A stretch of DNA of 14,071 nt from a virus. Taxonomy: Duplodnaviria; Heunggongvirae; Uroviricota; Caudoviricetes. Position 1 is the first letter of the stretch; every line of letters starts with the position of its first letter. Positions 1 to 14,071 of this stretch are shown in pieces. The notes under the pieces are model-generated. The model saw only the letters and a list, made by a program, of their open reading frames with translations. It had not been told where the DNA came from and searched no databases. The DNA is taken from IMG/VR virus record IMGVR_UViG_2711768037_000016, positions 1-14,071 of that record; one strand, written 5' to 3'. The position numbers were made by a program, and so were the translations under genes.

Positions 1-381
1 TTACTTTTTTAGCAGCCAGTCGTCCATCTCCAGTCTTACCCCCAGCACAGACAAACATCCGTCAATAAACCCTTCGGCTATCTGCATCTCAATTCGTATT
101 GCTTTTTCGCTTTTCTTTCTCGTCCTGGCTATCTGTCTTTTTGATATTCGCAACAAATAATGAGCAATGAGAAGCGAATACTCCTCAGGTTTTTTCTGCT
201 TCAGACGAGCAAGACAGTTTTCAATGATAAGTCCGTCATCATCGCAGCAGGCCGGACGTGGTTTAGTGGCAGATGGTAAAAGTCCTTTGAATCCGGCAGC
301 GATCGGAGAATAGTCCACCCCGGTGTTACTACTTGCCGCCCATGCCCCCCAGCGTTCAAGAACCATCTGAATATCACGCAT
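1..381 (-). CDS. Antitermination protein Q-like (late-gene antiterminator)
   Basis: From the first in-frame ATG the protein begins MRDIQMVLERWGAWAA..., which I recall as the N-terminus of lambdoid Q antiterminators of the QuuD/phage-82 type. It has a Cys-rich central region (PACCDDD...ENCLARL). SD GGAGA lies 6 nt upstream of the ATG at 381; the track start at 396 is TTG. Stop is at 1-3. Confidence 0.8.
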   Translation of the reverse strand: MRDIQMVLERWGAWAASSNTGVDYSPIAAGFKGLLPSATKPRPACCDDDGLIIENCLARLKQKKPEEYSLLIAHYLLRISKRQIARTRKKSEKAIRIEMQIAEGFIDGCLSVLGVRLEMDDWLLKK

Positions 382-398
382 CAACTTTCTCCACAAAA

Positions 399-1394
399 TC
401 AGGACAGCACACCAATCGCCAGCGCGCGATCGATAAAACGAAATATCAGCTCCAGTTGGGAACCATACTTCTCTTCAAATGCCACGGTATCCGCATGCAG
501 TTCGTCATGGTGTTTTCTGCACAAAGGCAACACAAAAAGGTCATGCGCTTTTGTACCCATTCCACCCTGACCATGGCCAATCAGGTGATGCGGATCGTCG
601 GCTGGCTTACCACAACATGCACACGGCTGCGTCTTAACCCAGCGCGTGTACTTTTCATTAACCCAGCGACGACGTTTGGGGCGTAACATAAAAGACTCCG
701 GCGACTCCGGATCCACTTTCAGCGCCAGCACCTTTTTCGCTTTATCCCGGATGATGCTGGTGGCGAGAACCGAAGGCACAAGGTCACTTTCCCGGGTAAC
801 AGACGGCACAACAGTCTTCGGTAATCTCAGTGCCTTACGGGCTGCACTTTCCGGTAAGGCATCCGCCAGGTCATTACGAACCAGCCACCAGCACAGTTCC
901 GGCATTGTCACAACGTGACTGTCATCAAAACCGAGATCACGACGGACTACGGACAACACCCAGCGGGCACAGTTATCCGTTGCCATTGATTCCAGACGTT
1001 CCGTGAACTGATCGCGAAGCAGGTTATCGCAGTGCCAGCACAGACGGATTGCGCCTGGCGCGTGTCGCATTGTGGTCATGTTCTCGCTGTGCCATCCGGA
1101 ATGAGGCCACTGGCAGCCTTTTTCACGAAGTAACCAGCTCTCAAGGCATTCCACGCCACCAGCACGACGGATCACCGCCTCATGGCGGAACACGGCCCGA
1201 ACGGCAGGATCATCCGCCAGCGGTTGTGATGCTGCCGGAACGGCACCACTGGCAAAAGAGGAATAACGTTCCGGCTCAGGCTCCAGCAGGACACGCCCCT
1301 GCATAAACAGGGGCATCAGCTCTGAACCGGGTCTGAACAAGACGATCCCCATACGCGGGGCAATTTCAGGGGTCAGCAGTGCTCTCACGGTCAC
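399..1394 (-). CDS. DUF968-like nin-region protein with C-terminal Cys/His (HNH-like) motif
   Basis: 331-aa ORF. The C-terminal segment CACCGKPADDPHHLIGHGQGGMGTKAHDLFVLPLCRKHHDELH resembles the conserved motif of lambdoid DUF968/YdfU-type proteins (recollection, not a search). Start is uncertain: GTG at 1394, or GTG at 1388 with SD GAGG. Confidence 0.6.
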   Translation of the reverse strand: MTVRALLTPEIAPRMGIVLFRPGSELMPLFMQGRVLLEPEPERYSSFASGAVPAASQPLADDPAVRAVFRHEAVIRRAGGVECLESWLLREKGCQWPHSGWHSENMTTMRHAPGAIRLCWHCDNLLRDQFTERLESMATDNCARWVLSVVRRDLGFDDSHVVTMPELCWWLVRNDLADALPESAARKALRLPKTVVPSVTRESDLVPSVLATSIIRDKAKKVLALKVDPESPESFMLRPKRRRWVNEKYTRWVKTQPCACCGKPADDPHHLIGHGQGGMGTKAHDLFVLPLCRKHHDELHADTVAFEEKYGSQLELIFRFIDRALAIGVLS

Positions 1395-1440
1395 CTCAGC
1401 GAACGGTATTGCATGAACGCAGGAGAAAAAAATTCAGCCA

Positions 1441-1698
1441 TCACGCAGTAAACTCCTTCACCAGCGTTTCAAACAGGCTTACCTGGCCTTCCAGTTCCGC
1501 CACGCAATCCACCAGCTCATCCACCGCCTTTTGTGTGCGGTGTTTTGCCTGCAGCAGATCACGAAGCGCCGGAGTAAGCTGCTTGCGGAGCGTATCTTTT
1601 GCCACGCTCGTTTTTTCCATCTGTTCAGCACAACGAAGCATCTCCTGCGCCTGCCGACGAAGTTGTTCCGGTGAAACAGTGGTTGTTCTGTTGTTCAA
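1441..1698 (-). CDS. Small hypothetical protein, predicted coiled-coil
   Basis: 85-aa ORF with a TTG start overlapping the helicase stop (TTGA); GGAG lies 8 nt upstream. Heptad-like charged sequence. Real but with uncertain start, or possibly shorter from an internal ATG. Confidence 0.4.
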   Translation of the reverse strand: MNNRTTTVSPEQLRRQAQEMLRCAEQMEKTSVAKDTLRKQLTPALRDLLQAKHRTQKAVDELVDCVAELEGQVSLFETLVKEFTA

Positions 1699-3095
1699 AA
1701 TAAACGCTCCGTTTTACTACCCGACATGCGGTTATTGCTGTATCTGCGCGGATTGCCCGGCGTCATGGGAGTGGAAAGAATCCGGGCACTCTCCTGGTCC
1801 ACAGGCAGAAAATGCCCGTTATGAAAACGCCGGTAAATGGTACCCAGCGTGCCATTACGCTGTTTCGTGATGTTGATTTCTGCTATGCCTCTCGCCTGTG
1901 TCTCCGGGTTGTACACCTCATCCCTGTAAAGCATCAGAATGATGTCTGCATCCGCCTCTATTTCCCCTGAGTTTTTCAGGTCCGAGTTCATGGGGCGTTT
2001 ATTGGGTCTGGATTCCACGCCACGGGAGAGCTGGCTCAGAGCAATCAGCGGAAAACCGCCGGATTTTGCCAGGCTTTTAAGTCCCTTTGAGATTTCCCCC
2101 ACAGCAAGGTCGTGACGCCCCGTGCTGCGGGTTTTAATCAGGCCGAGGTAATCGACCACCACCAGCGCCGTTTCCGGGTGTTTCATCCGGTGGTGCCTCG
2201 TGGTTGCACATATCTCATCAATGGTCAGGTTTGCCTGGTCCACCATCCAGATATTACGCCCCGTCATTCGTCCCACGCCCTGTGAGAAACGCGCCCAGTC
2301 TTCATCTTCAAAACGGGCAACAGACTTAAGACGGGATACCGGCATTCCCCCGGCAGCAGACACCATACGTTCACCAATCTGAATGTTCGCCATCTCCATG
2401 GTGAACAGAAGCACGCCATGCCCCTGCTCAGTCACCTTGTCGATGATATCCAGCGCAAGTTCGGTTTTCCCCATCGAAGGACGGGCCGCAATGAATACCA
2501 GGTCGCCTGGCTCCATACCGCCCGTTTTTGCGTCCAGTTCATCAATACCGGTCATCAGCGCCCTGGATTTCTCCAGTCCCTGATTGCGGCATTCAACACG
2601 GTCGACCACTTCCGGAAGGACATCATCAATGTGAACCGGCTGAATGACGCCCTTTCCGGTCGACAGTGAGGCCATCATGTTCTGCGCATCCTTCAGGGCA
2701 TCCTCGGCTGCTTCACAGGTATACGCATCACGTAAATTCTGTAATGCTTCAGTCAGTGTTTTTTCTGCATCGCGCAGTGCGGCATTGCGCCGCAACGCTG
2801 CGACATAGTGCTCCAGTGAAGACTTCACCCAGGTTTTGCGTCCGGTGTCGGTAATCACCGGGGCAAGTTCCGGCATCTCATTGCACAGTAGCACGGGATC
2901 AATGACGCCGGATACGCGGGCCTGTCTGCAAATTCCCGCGTAAATATCCCGGTACTGTCGTGCAGAAAAAACGTCCGCCGACAATGTGGCCAGAATATCC
3001 ATCACTTCCGGATCAGCCCCACGCAGAAAAAACGCGCCAATGACAGCGCCTTCCAGGTCATCGTTACGCCATGCCGGGGTGTTCTGGCTGGTCAT
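1695..3095 (-). CDS. Replicative DNA helicase, DnaB family (phage P-region helicase)
   Basis: 466 aa. Walker A-like AARPSMGKTELAL, a DnaB-type C-terminal RecA-like domain (LVVVDYLGLI, SQLSRGVESR) and a DnaB-like N-terminal domain. ATG at 3095 has a strong SD GGAGGTG 7 nt upstream and overlaps the upstream stop (ATGA). Confidence 0.9.
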   Translation of the reverse strand: MTSQNTPAWRNDDLEGAVIGAFFLRGADPEVMDILATLSADVFSARQYRDIYAGICRQARVSGVIDPVLLCNEMPELAPVITDTGRKTWVKSSLEHYVAALRRNAALRDAEKTLTEALQNLRDAYTCEAAEDALKDAQNMMASLSTGKGVIQPVHIDDVLPEVVDRVECRNQGLEKSRALMTGIDELDAKTGGMEPGDLVFIAARPSMGKTELALDIIDKVTEQGHGVLLFTMEMANIQIGERMVSAAGGMPVSRLKSVARFEDEDWARFSQGVGRMTGRNIWMVDQANLTIDEICATTRHHRMKHPETALVVVDYLGLIKTRSTGRHDLAVGEISKGLKSLAKSGGFPLIALSQLSRGVESRPNKRPMNSDLKNSGEIEADADIILMLYRDEVYNPETQARGIAEINITKQRNGTLGTIYRRFHNGHFLPVDQESARILSTPMTPGNPRRYSNNRMSGSKTERLF

Positions 3096-3970
3096 GCTGC
3101 AACACCTCCGATACGAGAACGGTAGCTGGGCCAGTTAAACGACAACCAGTTGCGCCCGCCATTGGTGATCCTGTCGGCAATCCGGGGACTGATGAACGCC
3201 CACAATTCTTCCGGTGAAAGGTTGCTGATCAAGATAGTTGGCAAAATACCCTCATACCGGGCATTGATAATTTCCTGCAAAATGGCCATTTCAGCCGCAC
3301 TGCCAAACTGAACGCCGACTTCGTCGATGATCAGCAAATCCAGTGACGCATAATGCTCAATGACGTCATCCGCTGTTTTTTCACTGTCATTCCGCCAGCA
3401 GTTTTTTACAGCACGGGTAAGGCGCATCACGTCGGTGATCTCCACACTGGCCAGATAGTTACGGATGATGTGTTTTGCCATTGATACCGCCAGATGATTT
3501 TTCCCGGTACCGCAACTGCCGGTCATAACAAGACTGGTACCGTTCTCCAGCATATCTGGCCAGTTCTCCGCATAGCGGCGACAGGCCGCAAGATTTCTGG
3601 CTGCGTCAGGATTAACCTCCAGATAATTATCAAACTCGCAGTCCCGAAAACGCAGAGCAATTCCGGCGTTATCAGTCAGTTCTTCCGCCTTGAGGGACGA
3701 CAGCTCCATGGTCAAATCGTTGGCCTCAGCTATCAAGCAGTCAGGGCAGCATGAAATTTTTTCTCTGTCCTCGCCATTACGATCGCTCCACACCAGAATA
3801 TGTGTGTGGTACTCGCCATGTTTTTCGCAACACCCACGCCCTTCACGCATCCAGCAGGAACGATAAGGCCATGGTTTTTCGCCCTTCTGAGCAAATGCAA
3901 TCTCTGCCCGTAACTCATCCATCCGCGCCTGTAGTCTTGTTTGTTGTTCACGCAGGTTAAACGTCATCAT
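3092..3970 (-). CDS. DnaC/IstB-like AAA+ helicase loader with N-terminal Cys/His-rich segment
   Basis: Walker A GSCGTGKNHLA and Walker B LLIIDEVG. N-terminal C...CC..H..H.H...CCPDC cluster. The first ATG, at 3970, has SD GAGGTG 6 nt upstream; the track start at 3979 is GTG. Confidence 0.85.
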   Translation of the reverse strand: MMTFNLREQQTRLQARMDELRAEIAFAQKGEKPWPYRSCWMREGRGCCEKHGEYHTHILVWSDRNGEDREKISCCPDCLIAEANDLTMELSSLKAEELTDNAGIALRFRDCEFDNYLEVNPDAARNLAACRRYAENWPDMLENGTSLVMTGSCGTGKNHLAVSMAKHIIRNYLASVEITDVMRLTRAVKNCWRNDSEKTADDVIEHYASLDLLIIDEVGVQFGSAAEMAILQEIINARYEGILPTILISNLSPEELWAFISPRIADRITNGGRNWLSFNWPSYRSRIGGVAA

Positions 3971-3980
3971 CGCTGTCACC

Positions 3981-4907
3981 TCAGAATGTCAATTTGTCAC
4001 TGGATTTACCGAATTTGTCAGACATGGCTCCCAGGCCAGCCAGGACATCGACCTGTCGCTGTCGCCCACCTCCGGGAGCTGCTGGCTGTTGCCAGAAATC
4101 TTCGAAGTGACGATCGGGTCCAAAGAACGTCGACGCCTGCTTCACGAACTGGGTGCCGGTATTTCCTGAGACACGCACCCAGGCAGCATAGCGTTTCACA
4201 CCGTTGAGCATGGTTTCTGGTGTCACACCTTCCCTGATTCGGGCTTTCCAGGCTTTGAAGGCTGCTGACTTGGAATTACCACCAGCACGTTTGGGATATT
4301 CCTGCCAGGCCTGTTCAAATTCCGGTGAATATTCCTGTCTGGCAGAACGCGCTGGTGCAGACGCGTCAGCGGATGCGCCAATATCTTGCGGTTCATGTTT
4401 TGAATTTACTGGTGGTTCATGTTTTAAACCTTGTGGATCTGGGGTCAGATTCTGAAGGGTCAAACGCGTATTTTTGCCAGAATCTGAAGGGTCAAACACA
4501 CCTGAACATACAGATTCTGACGGTTCAGATTTTGAAGGTTCAGAATCTGAAGGGTCACGTAATCCTGAAAGTCTGCGCTGCTGTTTCAGTTCTGCAACCT
4601 TATCCCGCTCTGTTCTGGCAAGCAGCTCAAGCCGATCAGCATTCAGATGATAAAGATTGGACGTATTACGGTTACCTTTGCGGCGTGACTGACGCGTCAG
4701 CCAGCCATCAGCCTCCAGTTCGGAGATTGCCGTTCTGACTGTACTTTCTCCCAACCCAAGCTGTCGGCATATGGTTTCAACACCTGGGTAGCACACCCCG
4801 TCATCATTCGAATAATCCGCCAGGCGCGCCATAATCATCAGTTTTGCACCTTTGATGCCATATGCTGCACATGCATCCCAGACATTACCTAGGATTTTGC
4901 TACTCAT
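3981..4907 (-). CDS. Phage replication initiator (lambda O-like role): N-terminal winged-HTH, repetitive linker, C-terminal domain
   Basis: 308 aa. The N-terminus looks HTH-like (GESTVRTAISELEADGWLTR). A low-complexity Ser/Pro/Asp/Glu linker is encoded by the iteron array. Strong SD GGGAGG lies 6 nt upstream of the ATG at 4907. It sits immediately upstream of the loader and helicase. Confidence 0.7.
   Translation of the reverse strand: MSSKILGNVWDACAAYGIKGAKLMIMARLADYSNDDGVCYPGVETICRQLGLGESTVRTAISELEADGWLTRQSRRKGNRNTSNLYHLNADRLELLARTERDKVAELKQQRRLSGLRDPSDSEPSKSEPSESVCSGVFDPSDSGKNTRLTLQNLTPDPQGLKHEPPVNSKHEPQDIGASADASAPARSARQEYSPEFEQAWQEYPKRAGGNSKSAAFKAWKARIREGVTPETMLNGVKRYAAWVRVSGNTGTQFVKQASTFFGPDRHFEDFWQQPAAPGGGRQRQVDVLAGLGAMSDKFGKSSDKLTF
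4390..4558. repeat. Iteron array inside the initiator gene (candidate phage replication origin)
   Basis: Direct repeats read off the sequence: GGTTCATGTTTT(G/A)AA at 4390-4404 and 4414-4428; CAGATTCTGAAGGGTCAAAC at 4446-4465; CAGAATCTGAAGGGTCAAAC at 4478-4497; and three overlapping ~15-bp-period copies at 4511-4528, 4526-4543 and 4541-4558. Confidence 0.6.
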
Positions 4908-5128
4908 ACGGCACCTCCCAGACGCTTAAACATTTTTCCGGACTGAAACGCCACCAGCGGATAACTCAGGGTATGAGTACGTCCCTGAACCTGGCAGACA
5001 ACCTTCTGGCTTTCTGTATTGACCAGGCAAACCCGCAGAACGTGTCCGTTGCTGGTGGTGAACCACTGCCCCACACGGGGGCAGTGGTCGTATCGGTGAT
5101 ACAGGGGATTAACGACACGGCGAATCAT
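4904..5128 (-). CDS. Hypothetical 74-aa protein (between Rha genes and initiator)
   Basis: ATG at 5128 with strong SD GGAGG 7 nt upstream. ATGA overlaps at both ends (with Rha-3 stop and initiator start). No recognisable domain. Confidence 0.55.
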   Translation of the reverse strand: MIRRVVNPLYHRYDHCPRVGQWFTTSNGHVLRVCLVNTESQKVVCQVQGRTHTLSYPLVAFQSGKMFKRLGGAV

Positions 5129-5784
5129 GGGTTTACCTCCCGTTGATTACGACGGGACACGGAGTGACCCTGGACGGTTTCAACCTCATGGAGTGCGTCA
5201 ATACAGCTCTCGTAGTACCGCATGGTGCGCAGACTTAACCCAAGCTGTAGCATCATCAGACCATCACGGGTGATGTAATAACCACGCACTGAATCGCCAT
5301 AGGCGCGATAAGTGCCGGGAATAAAGTTGCGGGTGAGAAATTCGCGTGAACAGTTGAGATATTCGATTCGATCGACGATGTTCTTATGCATGCGCTTAAA
5401 GTGACAGGCGACATACAGGGAGAAAATAACGGCCTTGCCGTTGACGACTTCGATTTTCAGGTATGGGGAAGTTGGGTCTGTAGCCATGATGGCAGCCTCC
5501 GTATGCAATGGATAACTTCCACCACCGGAAACGCCAATTTCGCTGGTGGTGAACTGAGCAGGGTTGGCGTAACCGGCGCATACGGAAACCGGCGCACCTT
5601 TCGGTGCCCCCACCCAGCCCACCATAATTTGGGTATAGCTGAGTTGTAGCAACAAAAAAGACGCTAACGCGCCAATTGTCGCCGTATGCAATTCTAGGAC
5701 GCCAATCCCGGCACCCGTTTTATAAGGTGCCTGAACAGTGTAACGTCCCGGAATGGCAGAATCAATATTCAGGTAGCGGATCAT
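5125..5784 (-). CDS. Rha-domain phage regulatory protein with ~100-aa N-terminal domain of unknown function (Rha-3)
   Basis: 219 aa. The Rha-like segment GKAVIFSLYVACHFKRMHKNIVDRIEYL...YYITRDGLMMLQLG lies in the C-terminal half. ATG at 5784 has strong SD AAGGAGG 7 nt upstream. The N-terminal domain is paralogous to that of the adjacent gene. Confidence 0.7.
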   Translation of the reverse strand: MIRYLNIDSAIPGRYTVQAPYKTGAGIGVLELHTATIGALASFLLLQLSYTQIMVGWVGAPKGAPVSVCAGYANPAQFTTSEIGVSGGGSYPLHTEAAIMATDPTSPYLKIEVVNGKAVIFSLYVACHFKRMHKNIVDRIEYLNCSREFLTRNFIPGTYRAYGDSVRGYYITRDGLMMLQLGLSLRTMRYYESCIDALHEVETVQGHSVSRRNQREVNP

Positions 5785-6806
5785 GGACGCACCTCCTTGT
5801 CAGAACCATTCAGCCTGGAATCAACAAGTGCAGCACCAAAAACAGCATCACCAACACGGTCGTACAGTTTGCTGGCCAGCGGAGATTCAACAGCCTTAAG
5901 CATTGGATAAAGCTGGCTTGTCCAGATTTGATGGATTTCACGCAAATGCAGGTATACGCCTCTGGCGTTTCGTGCGACAGCTGACATATCAGACGCATCG
6001 GCACCTGATAAACTCTTCTCCATCAGGTTAAAGGCGTTGATGTATGCCTCTTTGAACCTGGCTGCACGTTTACCAGTGAAGCCCATAGCAAGAAACGCAA
6101 AGCCGTCGCGGGTTATTTGATAGCAAGGAAGTTTGCGGCCTGTGCAATCGGTGTAATCACTCACCGAAAAATTGCGGGCACAAAACTCTGGAGAACAATC
6201 CAAAATGCGGATCTTTTTCAGAACATCGTCATGACGTTTAGAGAAGAAGTCAGCAACAGCCAAAGAAGATGTAACAGCCTGACCATCAACGATGGCAATT
6301 TCAGGTTGAGAGAGGGTTGGGAGAGTAGTCATAGTGACAGCCCCGGTAGTCAGTTTTTTAGAAAACTCACCACATGGGACGCCAATCACAGAGGTGGTGA
6401 GACGTACAGGGTTGGCGTTACCGGAGACTACCGAACCCGGCCCGACCGAAGTCGGCCCTGTACGCCCCACCATAATTTGGGCGTAGTAATGCTCATGACA
6501 CGAAAAAACCGCATGAGCGCGGTTATGCTCAGTAATCAATTTCAGGACGCCAATCCCGGCACCCGCTTTATAAGGTGCCAGAACAGTGTAACGTCCCGGA
6601 ATTGCAGAATCAATATGCTGGTGGCGCTTCACACTCAACAAAATCACGACGAAACAACCACAGCGGGCTGAAGCATTCATGCGGATAACCATCACGCAGG
6701 TAAATAACCCGCTGTGTTTCAGGCTCCCAGCGTATAACGTGGACGCGACGCCCCCTTCCATCACGGAACCAGCGATTGAGTACTTGCATGTGTTACCTGT
6801 GAGCAT
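5781..6806 (-). CDS. Rha-domain phage regulatory protein, longer paralogue with N- and C-terminal extensions (Rha-2)
   Basis: 341-aa ORF. Rha-like core GQAVTSSLAVADFFSKRHDDVLKKIRIL...YQITRDGFAFLAMGFTGKRAARFKEAYINAF. It shares the motifs IDSAIPGRYTV..APYK.GAGIGVL and QIMVG with Rha-3. ATG at 6806 has a weak SD (AGGGG); the true start is uncertain. Confidence 0.6.
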   Translation of the reverse strand: MLTGNTCKYSIAGSVMEGGVASTLYAGSLKHSGLFTCVMVIRMNASARCGCFVVILLSVKRHQHIDSAIPGRYTVLAPYKAGAGIGVLKLITEHNRAHAVFSCHEHYYAQIMVGRTGPTSVGPGSVVSGNANPVRLTTSVIGVPCGEFSKKLTTGAVTMTTLPTLSQPEIAIVDGQAVTSSLAVADFFSKRHDDVLKKIRILDCSPEFCARNFSVSDYTDCTGRKLPCYQITRDGFAFLAMGFTGKRAARFKEAYINAFNLMEKSLSGADASDMSAVARNARGVYLHLREIHQIWTSQLYPMLKAVESPLASKLYDRVGDAVFGAALVDSRLNGSDKEVRP

Positions 6807-6808
6807 AA

Positions 6809-7516
6809 TTACCCCTGCCAGCCCAGCGCCTGGAACAACCCCATTTTCGGGTGATACCAGCGTGCACCTCGTGGCTCTGCTTCACTCATCATGCGATGAA
6901 AAGCAGCCATGAAAGGTTCTACTGCAACAATCGCGCGACGCGACAACAATCCATCCGGCGTCATGAACTCATGGGTGTCGGTAGGGATCTGATATGCGTT
7001 CACCAGATTGCGGCATTTCGCATCTGACATACCCGTTTTCGCCACCAGCTGACGGTAACCTGCATAACCATAGCGTATGGTGCCTCTTTTGATTTTCTCG
7101 ACGGTTTCAGTAACGTAGGTGACTTTCTCTTCCACCTGCTCAAGACGTCTTTGTTGGCGAACAGCTTCAAGCGCCATTGCAGCAACCATTTCAATCTGGC
7201 TCATTGGTTTGCGGATTTGTTCTTCCAGTTCGCGCCAGCGGTCTACCAGGCGGGCGGTGAATTCAGGGCAAAGCTGTGCGACAACAATGATGCTGTCGCG
7301 CTTGCCTCGTTCACCTTCGAAAAGATAATGCTTACTTTTTTGAGTTAAACCTAACCCATTGATATTTTCAGAAATCCCCATTGGGGGAAGCTGAATAATC
7401 CCTCGTTGAGCAAGGCGCTCAATGGATTGTTTCACTTTGTCATGGCGGCTGCCCACCAGCTCTGCGATCTCAACGCTGGTCATGGATGCTTTATCGGTAA
7501 AAATTGCGGTATTCAT
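6809..7516 (-). CDS. Phage regulatory protein Rha (canonical N-terminal Rha domain) (Rha-1)
   Basis: From the ATG at 7516 (SD AAGGAG 7 nt upstream) the protein starts MNTAIFTDKASMTSVEIAELVGSRHDKVKQSIERL, a typical Rha N-terminus. The track start at 7552 is probably too far upstream. Confidence 0.8.
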   Translation of the reverse strand: MNTAIFTDKASMTSVEIAELVGSRHDKVKQSIERLAQRGIIQLPPMGISENINGLGLTQKSKHYLFEGERGKRDSIIVVAQLCPEFTARLVDRWRELEEQIRKPMSQIEMVAAMALEAVRQQRRLEQVEEKVTYVTETVEKIKRGTIRYGYAGYRQLVAKTGMSDAKCRNLVNAYQIPTDTHEFMTPDGLLSRRAIVAVEPFMAAFHRMMSEAEPRGARWYHPKMGLFQALGWQG

Positions 7517-7545
7517 CTGATTGCTCCTTGAGGATGACATTTCAG

Positions 7546-7576
7546 AACTCACGCCAAAACGTATGCATCGTGAGTT
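7546..7576 (-). other. Imperfect stem-loop in the leader between the cro-like gene and Rha-1
   Basis: AACTCACG (7546-7553) pairs with CGTGAGTT (7569-7576), an 8-bp stem around a 15-nt loop containing the palindrome ATGCAT. No U-tract follows on the transcribed strand. Confidence 0.3.
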
Positions 7577-7597
7577 ACTGCTCGTGACAGTCAGTCT

Positions 7598-12769: not shown

Positions 12770-14071
12770 ATGAGTAACGCATCATACCCGACAGGCGTTG
12801 AAAACCATGGAGGATCACTCCGTATATGGTTTCACTATAATGGCAAACGTGTCAGAGAAAACCTCGGTGTTCCTGACACCGCCAAAAACCGGAAGATCGC
12901 TGGTGAGCTTCGCACTTCTGTTTGTTTTGCAATCAGAATGGGGAGTTTCGACTACGCCGCGCAGTTCCCTAATTCCCCTAACCTGAAACACTTTGGTCTG
13001 GGAAAAAGAGAGATAACCGTTAAGGCACTTTCGGAAAAATGGTTGGACCTTAAGAAAATTGAGATTTGTGCGAATGCACTTAACCGTTACCAGTCAGTAA
13101 TTAAAAACATGTTACCAATGTTAGGTGAAAAAAAATTGGTTTCATCCATAACAAAAGAGGATTTACTTTTCGTAAGGAGAGATTTGTTGACCGGTTACCA
13201 AAAGCTTTCTAATGGAAAGACTTCTTCCATAAAAGGGCGCTCAGTGGTCACGGTAAACTACTATATGACAACCATAGCTGGAATGTTTCAATTTGCAACA
13301 GATAATGGTTATACCTCAGGAAACCCATTTAACGGTCTGGCTCCCTTAAAAAAGTCCAAGGTAAAACCAGATCCTCTCACCCGTGACGAATTTATTCGTT
13401 TTATTGAGGCCTGCCGTCATCAACAAACAAAAAACCTGTGGATTCTCGCTGTATACACGGGTATTCGTCACGGGGAGTTGGTATCGCTGGCATGGGAAGA
13501 TATAGACCTTAAAGCAAGGACTATAACCATCCGTAGAAATTATACAAAACTTGGCGAATTCACTCCACCAAAAACCGATGCTGGCACCGGAAGGACAATT
13601 CATCTGGTTCAACCAGCTATTGATGCTCTTAAAAGCCAGGCGGAAATGACCATGCTTGGAAAGCAACATTCTGTAGAGGTAAAGCAGAGGGAATATGGGA
13701 GAACAGCTGTGCATAAATGTACTTTTGTTTTTAGCCCTCAGGTAATAAAACAGCAGCAGTTGTCTGGACCTCACTACAAAGTTGACTCCATCAGGGAGTC
13801 ATGGACAAGTATCTTAAAACGCGCAGGTCTGAGACACAGAAAATCGTACCAATCCAGGCATACTTATGCATGCTGGTCACTTGCCGCTGGAGCTAATCCT
13901 AGTTTTATCGCAAGCCAGATGGGCCACACAAACGCACAAATGGTATTCAATGTTTACGGAGCATGGATGAAAGACAACAATCACGAACAGATAGAACTCC
14001 TTAACAAAAGACTATCTGAAAGTGTCCCATGTATGCCCCATAAGAAAGTGGGGGAAAATAAAAACTTGTAA
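12770..14071 (+). CDS. int: Tyrosine recombinase (phage integrase) with N-terminal arm-binding domain, Rac/IntR-like
   Basis: 433 aa. N-terminus GVENHGGSLRIWFHYNGKRVRENLG (DUF3596-type arm-binding domain). Catalytic motifs RHGELVSLAWEDIDL, SRHTYACWSLAAGANPSFIASQMGH and VYGAWM (Tyr). SD GGAGG. Stop TAA at 14069-14071 is the window end. Confidence 0.9.
   Translation: MSNASYPTGVENHGGSLRIWFHYNGKRVRENLGVPDTAKNRKIAGELRTSVCFAIRMGSFDYAAQFPNSPNLKHFGLGKREITVKALSEKWLDLKKIEICANALNRYQSVIKNMLPMLGEKKLVSSITKEDLLFVRRDLLTGYQKLSNGKTSSIKGRSVVTVNYYMTTIAGMFQFATDNGYTSGNPFNGLAPLKKSKVKPDPLTRDEFIRFIEACRHQQTKNLWILAVYTGIRHGELVSLAWEDIDLKARTITIRRNYTKLGEFTPPKTDAGTGRTIHLVQPAIDALKSQAEMTMLGKQHSVEVKQREYGRTAVHKCTFVFSPQVIKQQQLSGPHYKVDSIRESWTSILKRAGLRHRKSYQSRHTYACWSLAAGANPSFIASQMGHTNAQMVFNVYGAWMKDNNHEQIELLNKRLSESVPCMPHKKVGENKNL

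Follow-up and report, generated by a model that had tools for sequence, protein, structure and literature searches.

Two predicted RNA immunity cassettes, annotated as a protein domain, precede Rha-family genes in a lambdoid early operon

Introduction

Phage control elements of the kind described here are already known from P4, P1, and Gifsy-1. First, PMC10111431 gives the order of the P4 immunity region as PLE, seqA, cI (CI RNA), seqC, and nested kil/eta. The same paper describes premature (Rho-dependent) termination that depends on immunity and is relieved by translation of the long ORF. IsrK corresponds to seqA and C4 corresponds to CI, and both are present in lambdoid prophages (PMC3632133). 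Second, the immI operon of P1 and P7 consists of c4, icd, and ant (Citron and Schuster 1990, as cited in PMC7313666), in which the loop sequences set the specificity (heteroimmunity). Third, the isrK-orf45-anrP locus of Gifsy-1 (Hershko-Shalev et al. 2016, PMC4825925) encodes a C4-like RNA, STnc1160, which is processed to about 80 nt and overlaps a small ORF that starts in the 5' end of C4. The direction of control differs among these models: P4 and P1 are described as repression by C4, whereas the Gifsy-1 experiments stress activation by IsrK (PMC4825925). Finally, a recent survey of the regulatory regions of Stx phages, Eru7-type phages among them (PMC8951638), treats Ash as part of a protein, lists the function of this domain as unknown, and reports a single Ash gene.

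We analyzed a 14,071-nt stretch of phage DNA (IMG/VR record IMGVR_UViG_2711768037_000016, positions 1 to 14,071), which we call the window and to which all coordinates refer. We estimate a probability of roughly 85% that positions 5125-6613 of the minus strand comprise two tandem RNA immunity cassettes of the P4/P1/Gifsy-1 type, each before a Rha-family antirepressor-like gene. This type of cassette is known; the tandem form with two specificities is uncommon. Our observations are matches to RNA families, covariation, the positions of the target sites, an open frame, and conservation across the population.

Three Rha-family genes and a shared leader

The cassettes lie in an early operon whose first gene is Cro/YdaS-like (7598-7855, minus strand; Pfam YdaS_toxin, E = 2.6e-9; P22_Cro, E = 0.0069). 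A CI-like repressor gene with an S24 peptidase domain is divergent from this operon (7988-8677, plus strand; Peptidase_S24, E = 4.6e-17, and HTH_3). A first-pass annotation had proposed three tandem Rha-family ORFs, and there are indeed three, head to tail on the minus strand, all with matches to Pfam PF09669 (Phage_pRha; gathering cut-off of 29.9 bits). Rha-1 (6809-7516, minus strand) is directly downstream of the Cro-like gene, has no RNA leader, and resembles Rha/Ant proteins (Phage_pRha, 31.6 bits; PHROG 63, "anti-repressor Ant," E = 2e-43). The short form of Rha-2 (183 amino acids; 5781-6332, minus strand) is a much clearer member of the family (Phage_pRha, E = 8.2e-29, about 99-100.5 bits; TIGR02681, 100.5 bits). 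The short form of Rha-3 (120 amino acids; 5125-5487, minus strand) contains only the Rha domain: it scores 30.5 bits, versus 28.5 bits, which is below the cut-off, if the long ORF is used. It also matches phrog_995 (E = 1.7e-49). Thus, the family scores of Rha-1 and of the short form of Rha-3 are marginal but above the cut-off.

Before the Rha domain, the Rha-2 and Rha-3 ORFs share a stretch of about 290 nt. The two copies are directly repeated 848 nt apart, and from just before the -35 hexamer of a putative promoter to the end of a C4-like RNA (both described below), they align without indels and are 82% identical overall. Within the repeat, the near-identical core that was reported earlier is real (3 mismatches in 71 nt, far beyond chance), but one of its intervals was off by 1 nt: 5696-5766 pairs with 6544-6614, not 6545-6615. 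The remaining Rha parts of the two genes are 37% identical as proteins, which is slightly lower than the 40-45% that had been given. The motifs that were thought to mark a shared N-terminal region (IDSAIPGRYTV, APYK.GAGIGVL, and QIMVG) are found in the conceptual translations.

Two copies of a regulatory RNA cassette

Judging from its sequence, the shared stretch is a known phage regulatory RNA cassette that has been mis-annotated as a protein domain, and the window contains two copies. RefSeq has no ncRNA annotation at the cassette locus. The predicted order in each cassette is a putative constitutive promoter, an IsrK/seqA-like RNA with an intrinsic terminator, a C4/CI-like RNA, and a target (b2) on the SD sequence of the Rha gene. 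Sites a1 and b1 within IsrK would be decoys for C4. The single-stranded a' and the hairpin loop b' of C4 are predicted to pair with a1 and b1 upstream and with a2 and b2 downstream.

In cassette 1, we read the putative promoter (6585-6613, minus strand) from the sequence as TTGATT (6613-6608), 17 nt, and TACACT (6590-6585). The IsrK/seqA-like RNA (6502-6578, minus strand) begins 7 nt downstream and scores 59.3 bits against Rfam RF01394 (isrK; gathering score of 50 bits). It contains a1 (ATTGGCGT, 6554-6547), b1 (GATTACTGAGC, 6537-6527), and a terminator hairpin with a U-run (6524-6503). The C4/CI-like antisense RNA (6390-6477, minus strand) scores 82.3 bits against RF01695 (C4; gathering score of 45 bits). 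It has an in-frame AUG (ATTATGG) at its 5' end, followed by the b' loop (GTTCGGTAGTCT, 6436-6425) and a' (ACGCCAAC, 6418-6411). The downstream targets (6341-6386, minus strand) are a2 (ATTGGCGT, 6386-6379) and b2 (GACTACCGGGG, 6351-6341). The ribosome-binding region of ATG 6332, which is purine-rich with a weak GGGG in place of GGAGG, overlaps with b2. The predicted pairing of the loop with b1 has 11 bp, including three G-U wobbles (-15.7 kcal/mol), and the pairing with b2 has 8 Watson-Crick bp, or 10 bp with G-U (-15.3 kcal/mol).

Cassette 2 has the same elements: a putative promoter (5737-5765, minus strand) with TTGATT (5765-5760), 17 nt, and TACACT (5742-5737); an IsrK/seqA-like RNA (5654-5730, minus strand; RF01394, 54.9 bits) with a1 (ATTGGCGT, 5706-5699), b1 (GCATACGG, 5689-5682), and a terminator (5673-5654); a C4/CI-like antisense RNA (5542-5629, minus strand; RF01695, 80.7 bits) with the b' loop (TTTCCGTATGCG, 5588-5577) and a' (ACGCCAAC, 5570-5563); and downstream targets (5496-5538, minus strand), namely a2 (ATTGGCGT, 5538-5531) and b2 (GCATACGGAGG, 5506-5496). 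Here, b2 includes the SD sequence GGAGG of ATG 5487. The predicted pairing energies are -13.7 kcal/mol for b1 and -16.7 kcal/mol for b2 (9 Watson-Crick bp).

Several observations support these assignments. Both C4 matches are full length (model positions 1-87 of 87), and hairpins with U-runs, which resemble terminators, were detected at both IsrK 3' ends. Within the window, all four occurrences of ATTGGCGT are a1 or a2 sites, and ACGCCAAC is confined to the two copies of C4. The leaders fold more stably than shuffled sequences (z = -6.3 and -4.3). The putative promoter matches just 8 of 12 consensus positions and is under the threshold of the promoter scan; its sequence hardly varies among 48 unique related cassettes, and it is placed like the promoter internal to P4 eta.

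We also examined covariation across 119 related cassettes, which have 26 distinct b' loop types. Cognate b' and b1, which lies in the linker of IsrK, have a median of 8 Watson-Crick nt, versus 4 for non-cognate pairs (-14.5 versus -6.8 kcal/mol); for b' and b2, the medians are 9 and 4 nt (-15.9 versus -9.4 kcal/mol). The cognate site was the best-ranked one for 22 of the 26 loop types (b1) or 17 of 26 (b2). An SD sequence and then an ATG come after b2 in most of the loop types, and the start of Rha-2 follows b2 and its SD sequence, in the same order as in all related cassettes. Because b' co-varies with b2 on the SD sequence of the internal ATG, we infer that the regulated starts are ATG 6332 (Rha-2) and ATG 5487 (Rha-3). 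The fold of C4 is conserved as well: in an RNAalifold consensus of 24 sequences (23 loop types and P4), a long outer stem surrounds two hairpins, compensatory double changes are seen at 13 of the 26 pairs, and almost no pair is broken.

Comparison to P4, Gifsy-1, P1/P7, and Eru7-type phages

The closest parallels are to P4. Its eta ORF also contains Rfam matches to isrK and C4, in the same order and with the same spacing; the CI/C4 loop is complementary to an upstream seqA/IsrK site and to a site on the SD sequence of the short gene; and a long ORF, coupled to the preceding gene by ATGA, runs from upstream of the internal promoter through both RNAs. P4 kil and the short gene of cassette 2 have the same start region (GGAGGCTGCCATCATGGCTAC). 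On the other hand, the cargo of P4 is the 65-amino-acid Kil, whereas here it is a Rha-domain protein of 183 or 120 amino acids, and the "a" specificity of P4 is of the TTCTCAC type, not ACGCCAAC. Also, P4 is a satellite, while the window has two cassettes in tandem, and the early operon that contains them is lambdoid (Eru7-type) and controlled by a CI/Cro switch.

The Gifsy-1 locus is likewise in a lambdoid prophage. Its leader is similar to this one at the DNA level, with read-through of the IsrK terminator, a C4-like RNA with an AUG in its 5' end, and a downstream antirepressor-like gene. However, orf45 stops at the antirepressor start (AUGA), whereas the frame of the C4 AUG runs into Rha here, as it does in 48 of 48 lambdoid modules. 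Furthermore, the Gifsy-1 locus adjoins antQ rather than being in the early operon next to cro, and the window has two copies.

In P1/P7 (PMC7313666), C4 is an antisense RNA from its target's own transcript, with a' and b' matching upstream and downstream sites, and it controls an antirepressor; this arrangement is shared. There, icd is a coupling ORF. In our cassettes, we did not find a separate icd-like ORF between C4 and the Rha start, and b2 is directly on the Rha SD sequence.

Finally, the type phage of Eru7, Stx2_14040, shares 95-99% identity with the window across the cassette region, and its 278-amino-acid "putative phage regulatory protein" is the leader plus Rha-3. Compared to the single Ash gene in PMC8951638, the window has two cassettes, and we resolve the Ash stretch into elements of RNA.

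The long open frames and the Ash annotation

As in the nested layout of P4, two long ORFs start upstream of the internal promoters and are in frame with the short genes. Long ORF 1 (341 amino acids; 5781-6806, minus strand) is a candidate read-through form like Eta. Its ATG is 2 nt past the Rha-1 stop (RefSeq places the start at 6680), and its first 63 or so codons are upstream of the shared region. These codons overlap, in another frame, a DUF4222 gene (59 amino acids; 6610-6789, minus strand) that is real (Pfam DUF4222, E = 1.9e-15; phrog_1343, E = 4.7e-34; annotated in RefSeq). Eta-like translation from ATG 6806 is therefore doubtful. The TGA stop of the DUF4222 gene falls within the -35 hexamer of cassette 1, and the arrangement of DUF4222 followed by a cassette recurs in another locus (L003) and in many others. 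Long ORF 2 (219 amino acids; 5125-5784, minus strand), which RefSeq names "ash family protein," is also a candidate for an Eta-like product. The Rha-2 stop and the ATG of this ORF (5784) overlap as ATGA (5784/5781), and an SD sequence (AAGGAGGT) lies 7 nt before the ATG.

The first-pass annotation considered the N-terminal region to be an uncharacterised protein domain. In fact, it matches a known family of Rha N-terminal extensions, Pfam PF10554 (Phage_ASH), with scores of 59.8 and 39.8 bits (gathering cut-off of 26 bits). On long ORF 2, the match spans amino acids 15-106, or nt 5742-5467, which is IsrK, C4, and b2. In P4, Phage_ASH matches the old "cI" ORF over the CI RNA, not epsilon. Because the matched stretch consists of these elements, and because the ORF over the CI RNA is matched too, membership in Phage_ASH says little about protein function.

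Could Ash nevertheless be a genuine protein domain fused to the N terminus of Rha and shared by a local gene duplication, in which gene conversion held some 70 bp nearly identical? Besides Phage_ASH, the PHROG 821/995 profiles cover the leader, RefSeq annotates a protein, and the 219-amino-acid ORF has a strong SD sequence and ATGA coupling; the homologous long ORF, P4 Eta, is reported as translated in PMC10111431. In particular, frame 0 runs through the cassette without stops in 48 of 48 related modules, and among 28 distinct variants of the segment from b1 through the terminator and spacer, there are no stops in frame 0 (0/28) versus stops in 23/28 in each other frame, although these counts overstate independence because the 48 modules are related by descent. 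The frame is kept open, as in P4 eta, and the first-pass annotation may be right that the region is translated. The leader, however, does not vary in the way of a coding region. Diversity by codon phase is flat in the leader (0.213/0.217/0.213) and lacks the third-position excess of the downstream Rha coding region (0.423/0.346/0.509). The substitutions in the stems are compensatory, and the three co-varying sites would be distant from each other in the protein. In 12 of 24 loop types, from other promoter classes, stops interrupt the upstream frame; many phage records have no annotated gene at the leader; and the 341-amino-acid ORF partly overlaps DUF4222 out of frame. We consider a genuine Ash domain to be very unlikely. 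The RNA cassette explanation affects thousands of "ash family protein" or "Rha/Ash" annotations in E. coli prophages and Stx phages; in the stretch that these names describe, the features that are conserved are RNA elements.

A model for control by the cassettes

By homology to the described systems, we infer that the promoters are active, that the RNAs are processed, that C4 represses, and that the long forms are translated. In a lysogen, the internal promoter would steadily produce IsrK, and C4 would arise by read-through of the terminator and processing. C4 binding to a2 and b2 would block ribosome binding at ATG 6332 and ATG 5487 and would probably also trigger premature termination, so that neither the Rha genes nor the replication genes further downstream would be expressed. 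Because IsrK bears the same target sequences, it could titrate C4 or refold the leader and thereby switch the gene on; this part of the model is taken from Gifsy-1, where it was demonstrated. If CI were inactivated, then the early operon would be transcribed from upstream, and the stop-free long ORFs, which are coupled to the preceding genes, might be translated through the cassettes. As with P4 Eta, this translation would render the transcript insensitive to C4. Recognizing the cassettes gives a concrete, testable handle on how Eru7-type prophages gate their antirepressor-like and replication genes.

A positive switch of the Gifsy-1 type might instead be the main mode: the read-through mRNA would be intrinsically inactive, translation would start at the AUG in the 5' end of C4 and continue in frame into Rha, and C4 would be a minor repressor. 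Both copies of C4 have the ATTATGG AUG, which shares the frame of the Rha start in all 48 of 48 lambdoid modules, and in the fold predicted for the leader of cassette 2, b2 and the SD sequence are sequestered in cis. In Gifsy-1, both translation of orf45 and IsrK-dependent activation were observed (PMC4825925). But orf45 of Gifsy-1 ends at the anrP start, whereas its equivalent here is fused in frame to Rha, and in other classes of cassettes, the AUG in C4 either lies in a different frame or opens an ORF that closes about 84 nt short of the start. Also, the feature that is conserved and co-varies is b2, with an SD sequence and ATG downstream, consistent with a repressor that acts at the short start, and the genetics of P4 and P1 identify CI/C4 as the immunity factor. 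We view the positive switch as possible but unlikely to be the main mode.

Under the model of repression by C4, each C4 would mainly control its own gene, because the cassettes differ in b specificity. The two specificities are not cleanly orthogonal, as the C4 of cassette 1 could pair with the shared SD region of cassette 2 (8 bp possible, two of them G-U; -12.3 kcal/mol). The b loop specificity classes offer a way to test whether immunity is partitioned among co-resident prophages. More speculatively, the cassettes could form a double RNA lock with two specificities on the early operon of an Eru7-type prophage that resembles Stx phages. The C4 RNAs would then provide immunity in trans, independently of the repressor, against two classes of superinfecting phages or satellites with matching b2 sites, and the long ORFs would be Eta-like anti-termination devices, translated only from the upstream early promoter. 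Although we think that this is rather unlikely, it would make the region dual-coding, for RNA and protein, with a role in tuning prophage induction and hence possibly the stability of Shiga-toxin phages.

Conservation of the core and origin of the tandem arrangement

The 71-nt core corresponds to the putative promoter and the first 35 nt of the IsrK-like RNA, including the a1 target. Two explanations had been offered for its near identity: strong constraint on an embedded site, or a local duplication with a gene-conversion tract. Constraint holds up well, as the core is almost invariant in 48 unique cassettes that vary elsewhere. Of 5,426 E. coli genomes, about 1,230 contain the core at 95% identity or above; because it is equally conserved in these genomes, local conversion is not needed. 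Sequence conservation thus points to a family-wide constraint instead of local gene conversion. The cargo genes are only 37% identical and the C4 loops differ, so two different cassettes were brought together; the conservation of the core and the low identity of the cargo also count against a fused protein domain shared by local duplication.

The downstream cassette and the short Rha-3 might be a decaying remnant of recombination between prophages, with no function now. Rha-3 is just 120 amino acids with a marginal score of 30.5 bits, and two cassettes together are rare: 6 of the 5,426 E. coli genomes carry 80% or more of the region in a single place. However, every element of cassette 2 is intact and the elements are mutually complementary. 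Furthermore, the same cassette and 120-amino-acid cargo make up the only cassette of phage Stx2_14040, the 120-amino-acid cargo is found in other loci too, and there are further tandem cassette loci. It is very unlikely that cassette 2 is a remnant. Relative to the single-cassette phage Stx2_14040, the recombination joint falls within the core.

RNA elements within the repeat shared by two Rha genes

The first-pass annotation described three tandem Rha genes here, and all three of the minus-strand ORFs do match Phage_pRha from Pfam. These are Rha-1 (ORF 6809-7552, with its ATG at 7516), a middle ORF of 341 amino acids (Rha-2, 5781-6806), and a last ORF of 219 amino acids (Rha-3, 5125-5784), which RefSeq annotates as an 'ash family protein'. 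In E. coli MFDS1006657, which matches the window at 100%, this sequence is a prophage. The two downstream ORFs have a direct repeat in common, with a spacing of 848 nt: in the alignment, the two copies are 82% identical and free of indels over a stretch that begins 4 nt ahead of a TTGATT hexamer and extends about 290 nt downstream. The near-identical core that had been noticed does have 3 mismatches in 71 nt, but the second interval, given as 6545-6615, was off by one base and should be 6544-6614. Similarly, the Rha parts of the two genes have diverged as claimed, but their protein identity is 37% rather than 40-45%.

The N-terminal regions ahead of the Rha parts had been taken for an uncharacterized protein domain. 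Instead, they match Phage_ASH from Pfam, and the same stretch matches two RNA families, isrK and C4. Specifically, a scan with Rfam at gathering thresholds gave four matches, every one of them within the supposed N-terminal domains and on the minus strand: isrK (RF01394) at 6578-6502 in cassette 1 and at 5730-5654 in cassette 2, and C4 antisense RNA (RF01695) at 6477-6390 (82.3 bits) in cassette 1 and at 5629-5542 (80.7 bits) in cassette 2. The RefSeq annotation of this locus does not contain an RNA gene.

Both IsrK copies end with a terminator-like hairpin and a U-run, and 7 nt upstream of each IsrK 5' end is the motif TTGATT-17 nt-TACACT. Our promoter scan did not report this motif, as it matches 8 of the 12 sigma-70 consensus positions and the threshold was 9. 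We kept the motif as a putative promoter purely for its position and its invariance. The 71-nt core corresponds exactly to this putative promoter together with the initial 35 nt of IsrK.

The C4 fold is supported by covariation, with compensatory double changes in 13 of 26 pairs and almost no broken pairs. For the leaders (the shared stretches ahead of the Rha parts), strong folding is predicted (z = -6.3 and -4.3). We also noticed a locus (L067, 8768-9024, plus strand) with two IsrK cores 238 nt apart, neither of which is followed by a C4-like hairpin; the cassette there seems to be incomplete or rearranged.

Predicted antisense targets and regulated starts

C4 has a single-stranded segment, a' (ACGCCAAC), whose complement (ATTGGCGT) occurs four times in the 14-kb window: in the two loops of IsrK hairpin 2 (a1) and once shortly downstream of each C4 copy (a2). 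The copies differ in b', the loop of C4 hairpin 2 (GTTCGGTAGTCT versus TTTCCGTATGCG). Each b' loop has one complement in the linker of its own IsrK (b1) and a second complement (b2) on the ribosome-binding region that serves an internal ATG. On the minus strand, b2 is GACTACCGGGG before ATG 6332 in cassette 1 and GCATACGGAGG before ATG 5487 in cassette 2. In the predicted fold of cassette 2, b2 and the Shine-Dalgarno (SD) sequence are paired in cis.

We collected 119 related cassettes from viral contigs by using a 19-nt IsrK pattern; 80 of these were unique, with 26 distinct b' loops. For b1, the median number of Watson-Crick nucleotides was 8 with the cognate loop versus 4 with non-cognate loops, the duplex energies were -14.5 versus -6.8 kcal/mol, and the cognate site ranked best for 22 of the 26 loop types. 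For b2, the corresponding values were 9 versus 4 nucleotides and -15.9 versus -9.4 kcal/mol, and the cognate site ranked best for 17 of 26. An SD sequence and an ATG come after b2 in most of these loop types. This three-way covariation identifies, at the level of sequence, ATG 6332 (a 183-aa Rha-2) and ATG 5487 (a 120-aa Rha-3) as the regulated starts.

Within the window, cognate duplexes have predicted energies of -13.7 to -16.7 kcal/mol and cross duplexes about -5 kcal/mol, so each cassette is predicted to be largely specific for its own targets. The exception is the C4 of cassette 1 against the shared SD region of cassette 2 (-12.3 kcal/mol, using loop bases only), and weak one-way cross-talk from this C4 to cassette 2 is possible. 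A value of -22 kcal/mol for the same loop against cassette 2 was set aside as spurious looking: that calculation also counted two bases of stem flanking the loop on either side.

Protein domain or RNA

The Phage_ASH match covers residues 15-106 of the 219-aa ORF, or nt 5742-5467, which is IsrK, C4, and a2/b2. Is this stretch also evolving as protein? Diversity in the leader is flat across codon phases (0.213/0.217/0.213), and the downstream Rha coding region has the usual excess at third positions (0.423/0.346/0.509). In 12 of 24 loop types, all from other promoter classes, the upstream frame is closed 15-81 nt before the start. Also, the 341-aa ORF overlaps, over its first 63 or so codons, a genuine DUF4222 gene that is read in another frame. 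Together, these three observations argue against ordinary protein evolution of the leader.

On the other hand, in the lambdoid class, the frame runs into Rha without a stop codon in all 48 unique cassettes. Among 28 distinct variants of the segment from b1 through the terminator and spacer, none has a stop in the Rha frame and 23 have one in each of the other frames; when this segment was shuffled, 29% of the shuffles were stop-free. The start of the 219-aa ORF reads AAGGAGGT-7 nt-ATG and overlaps the stop of Rha-2. Because of the stop-free frame and these start signals, ribosomes may pass through the leader.

The 341-aa ORF contains the whole DUF4222 gene (59 amino acids; 6610-6789, minus strand) in its 5' part, and the TGA stop of this gene is inside the -35 hexamer of cassette 1 (6608-6613). 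Among four diverged contexts of DUF4222, three also keep the other frame open as far back as the preceding gene's stop. The overlap could be due to chance or could be a true overlapping pair. A second, partial DUF4222 pseudogene (RefSeq; 12322-12426, plus strand; 12723-12827 in locus L001) is beside the excisionase gene.

Phage P4 provides a direct precedent for combining these RNA elements with an open frame that runs through them. According to the account of Forti et al. 1999 within PMC10111431, P4 eta is a long ORF that begins upstream of the internal constitutive promoter and continues through seqA and CI. As described there, eta is coupled to the alpA-like gene before it, and its end is the nested short gene kil; only an upstream promoter gives rise to Eta translation, which keeps immunity-dependent termination from taking place (PMC10111431). 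The P4 sequence (L123) confirms this layout: a 214-aa ORF (8168-8812) starts at ATGATGATG over the stop of ORF88, and both Rfam matches are inside it. Phage_ASH (PF10554) matches the historical 'cI gene product' ORF of P4 (8168-8584, minus strand), which contains the Rfam C4 match (CI RNA) and adjoins the isrK match (seqA). P4 kil and cassette 2 have the identical start region (GGAGGCTGCCATCATGGCTAC). PF10554 has been used as a marker for epsilon to detect P4-like satellites (PMC8628076). We considered whether Phage_ASH is the P4 epsilon antirepressor and ruled this out: the family that epsilon matches is PF25738, and the P4 ORF matched by Phage_ASH is 'cI'.

Proposed mechanism

By homology with P4, P1/P7, and Gifsy-1, the most likely mechanism is as follows. 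IsrK would be made from the internal promoters, and C4 would arise by read-through and processing. Pairing of C4 with a2/b2 would block the Rha start, and C4 would probably also cause premature termination. IsrK, which has the same a and b sequences, could sequester C4 or refold the leader. On transcripts from the early promoter upstream, translation would proceed through the cassettes, and these transcripts would thereby escape this control. The proposed role of IsrK fits with Gifsy-1, where activation by IsrK was shown experimentally (PMC4825925).

Some of this was already known. IsrK/seqA and C4/CI had been equated, and their occurrence in lambdoid prophages was noted (PMC3632133). In satellites, both RNAs were reported inside 'Bro-network' genes that carry Phage_ASH (PMC10111431). 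The Stx-phage literature still gives Ash as a domain of unknown function in the Rha/Ash proteins of Eru7 phages (PMC8951638), and the closest single-cassette relative of the window is the type phage of that group. Our additions are modest: a tandem with two specificities, clean three-way covariation, and a stop-free, dual-use frame. The main practical value is the corrected annotation, and the RNA switch is a pointer for work on Stx phages.

Conservation and distribution

The 48 unique cassettes with the TTGATT/TACACT class of promoter hardly differ in the 70-nt core. They do vary in b1, in the stem of the terminator, in the spacer, in the stems of C4, and in b' and b2. Of 5,426 complete E. 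coli genomes, about 1,230 have the 71-nt core at 95% identity or above. The leader is found in 281 phage records; many of these are Stx phages, and Gifsy-1 is among them. The first-pass annotation had offered strong constraint or local gene conversion to account for the similarity of the two cores. The near-invariance in cassettes and genomes supports strong constraint. Since near-identity is the norm for this family, with the core equally conserved across the population, local conversion is not needed to explain it, and we rejected it as unnecessary.

The two-cassette form is uncommon: six E. coli genomes have 80% or more of the region at a single place. The viral sample has three other tandem loci, in contigs L050, L089, and L107; in each, two cassettes with unlike b' loops (GGTCATGTGCGA or TTTCCGTATGCG plus TCTCCGTTGACG) are spaced by 866 nt. 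Compared to the window, the single-cassette phage Stx2_14040 is 98.9% identical upstream of the core and 89.9% identical downstream, and the two alignments overlap in the 75-nt core. Because the alignments meet there, the core looks like a recombination joint at which the 848-nt unit was gained or lost.

The region 1-5125 (minus strand) and locus L002 match the Eru7 replication-region type of Stx phages; downstream of the cassettes are an HTH_36 'O-like' protein, an ATP-binding protein, and a DnaB-type helicase. A chain of overlapping stops and starts runs through 4904-5784 (minus strand), with ATGA at 5784/5781 and 5128/5125 and then ATG 4907 over the stop of a 74-aa ORF. Rha-2 and Rha-3 end alike (...GGAGGTnnnnnCCATGA), and both the 219-aa ORF and the 74-aa ORF (phrog_1153) start with MIR. 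These common ends and starts, along with the chain, suggest that the right-hand boundary of the cassette is just inside the start of the downstream gene. The cargoes behind related cassettes are varied: 62-65 amino acids (the size of Kil), 77, 120, 181-187 (Rha), or 223-242. Their first codons (MAT/MTT..P) and the preceding GGCTGCCAxCATG are nevertheless shared, including with P4 kil (L123, 8365-8385), so the cassette seems to reach a few codons into the cargo gene.
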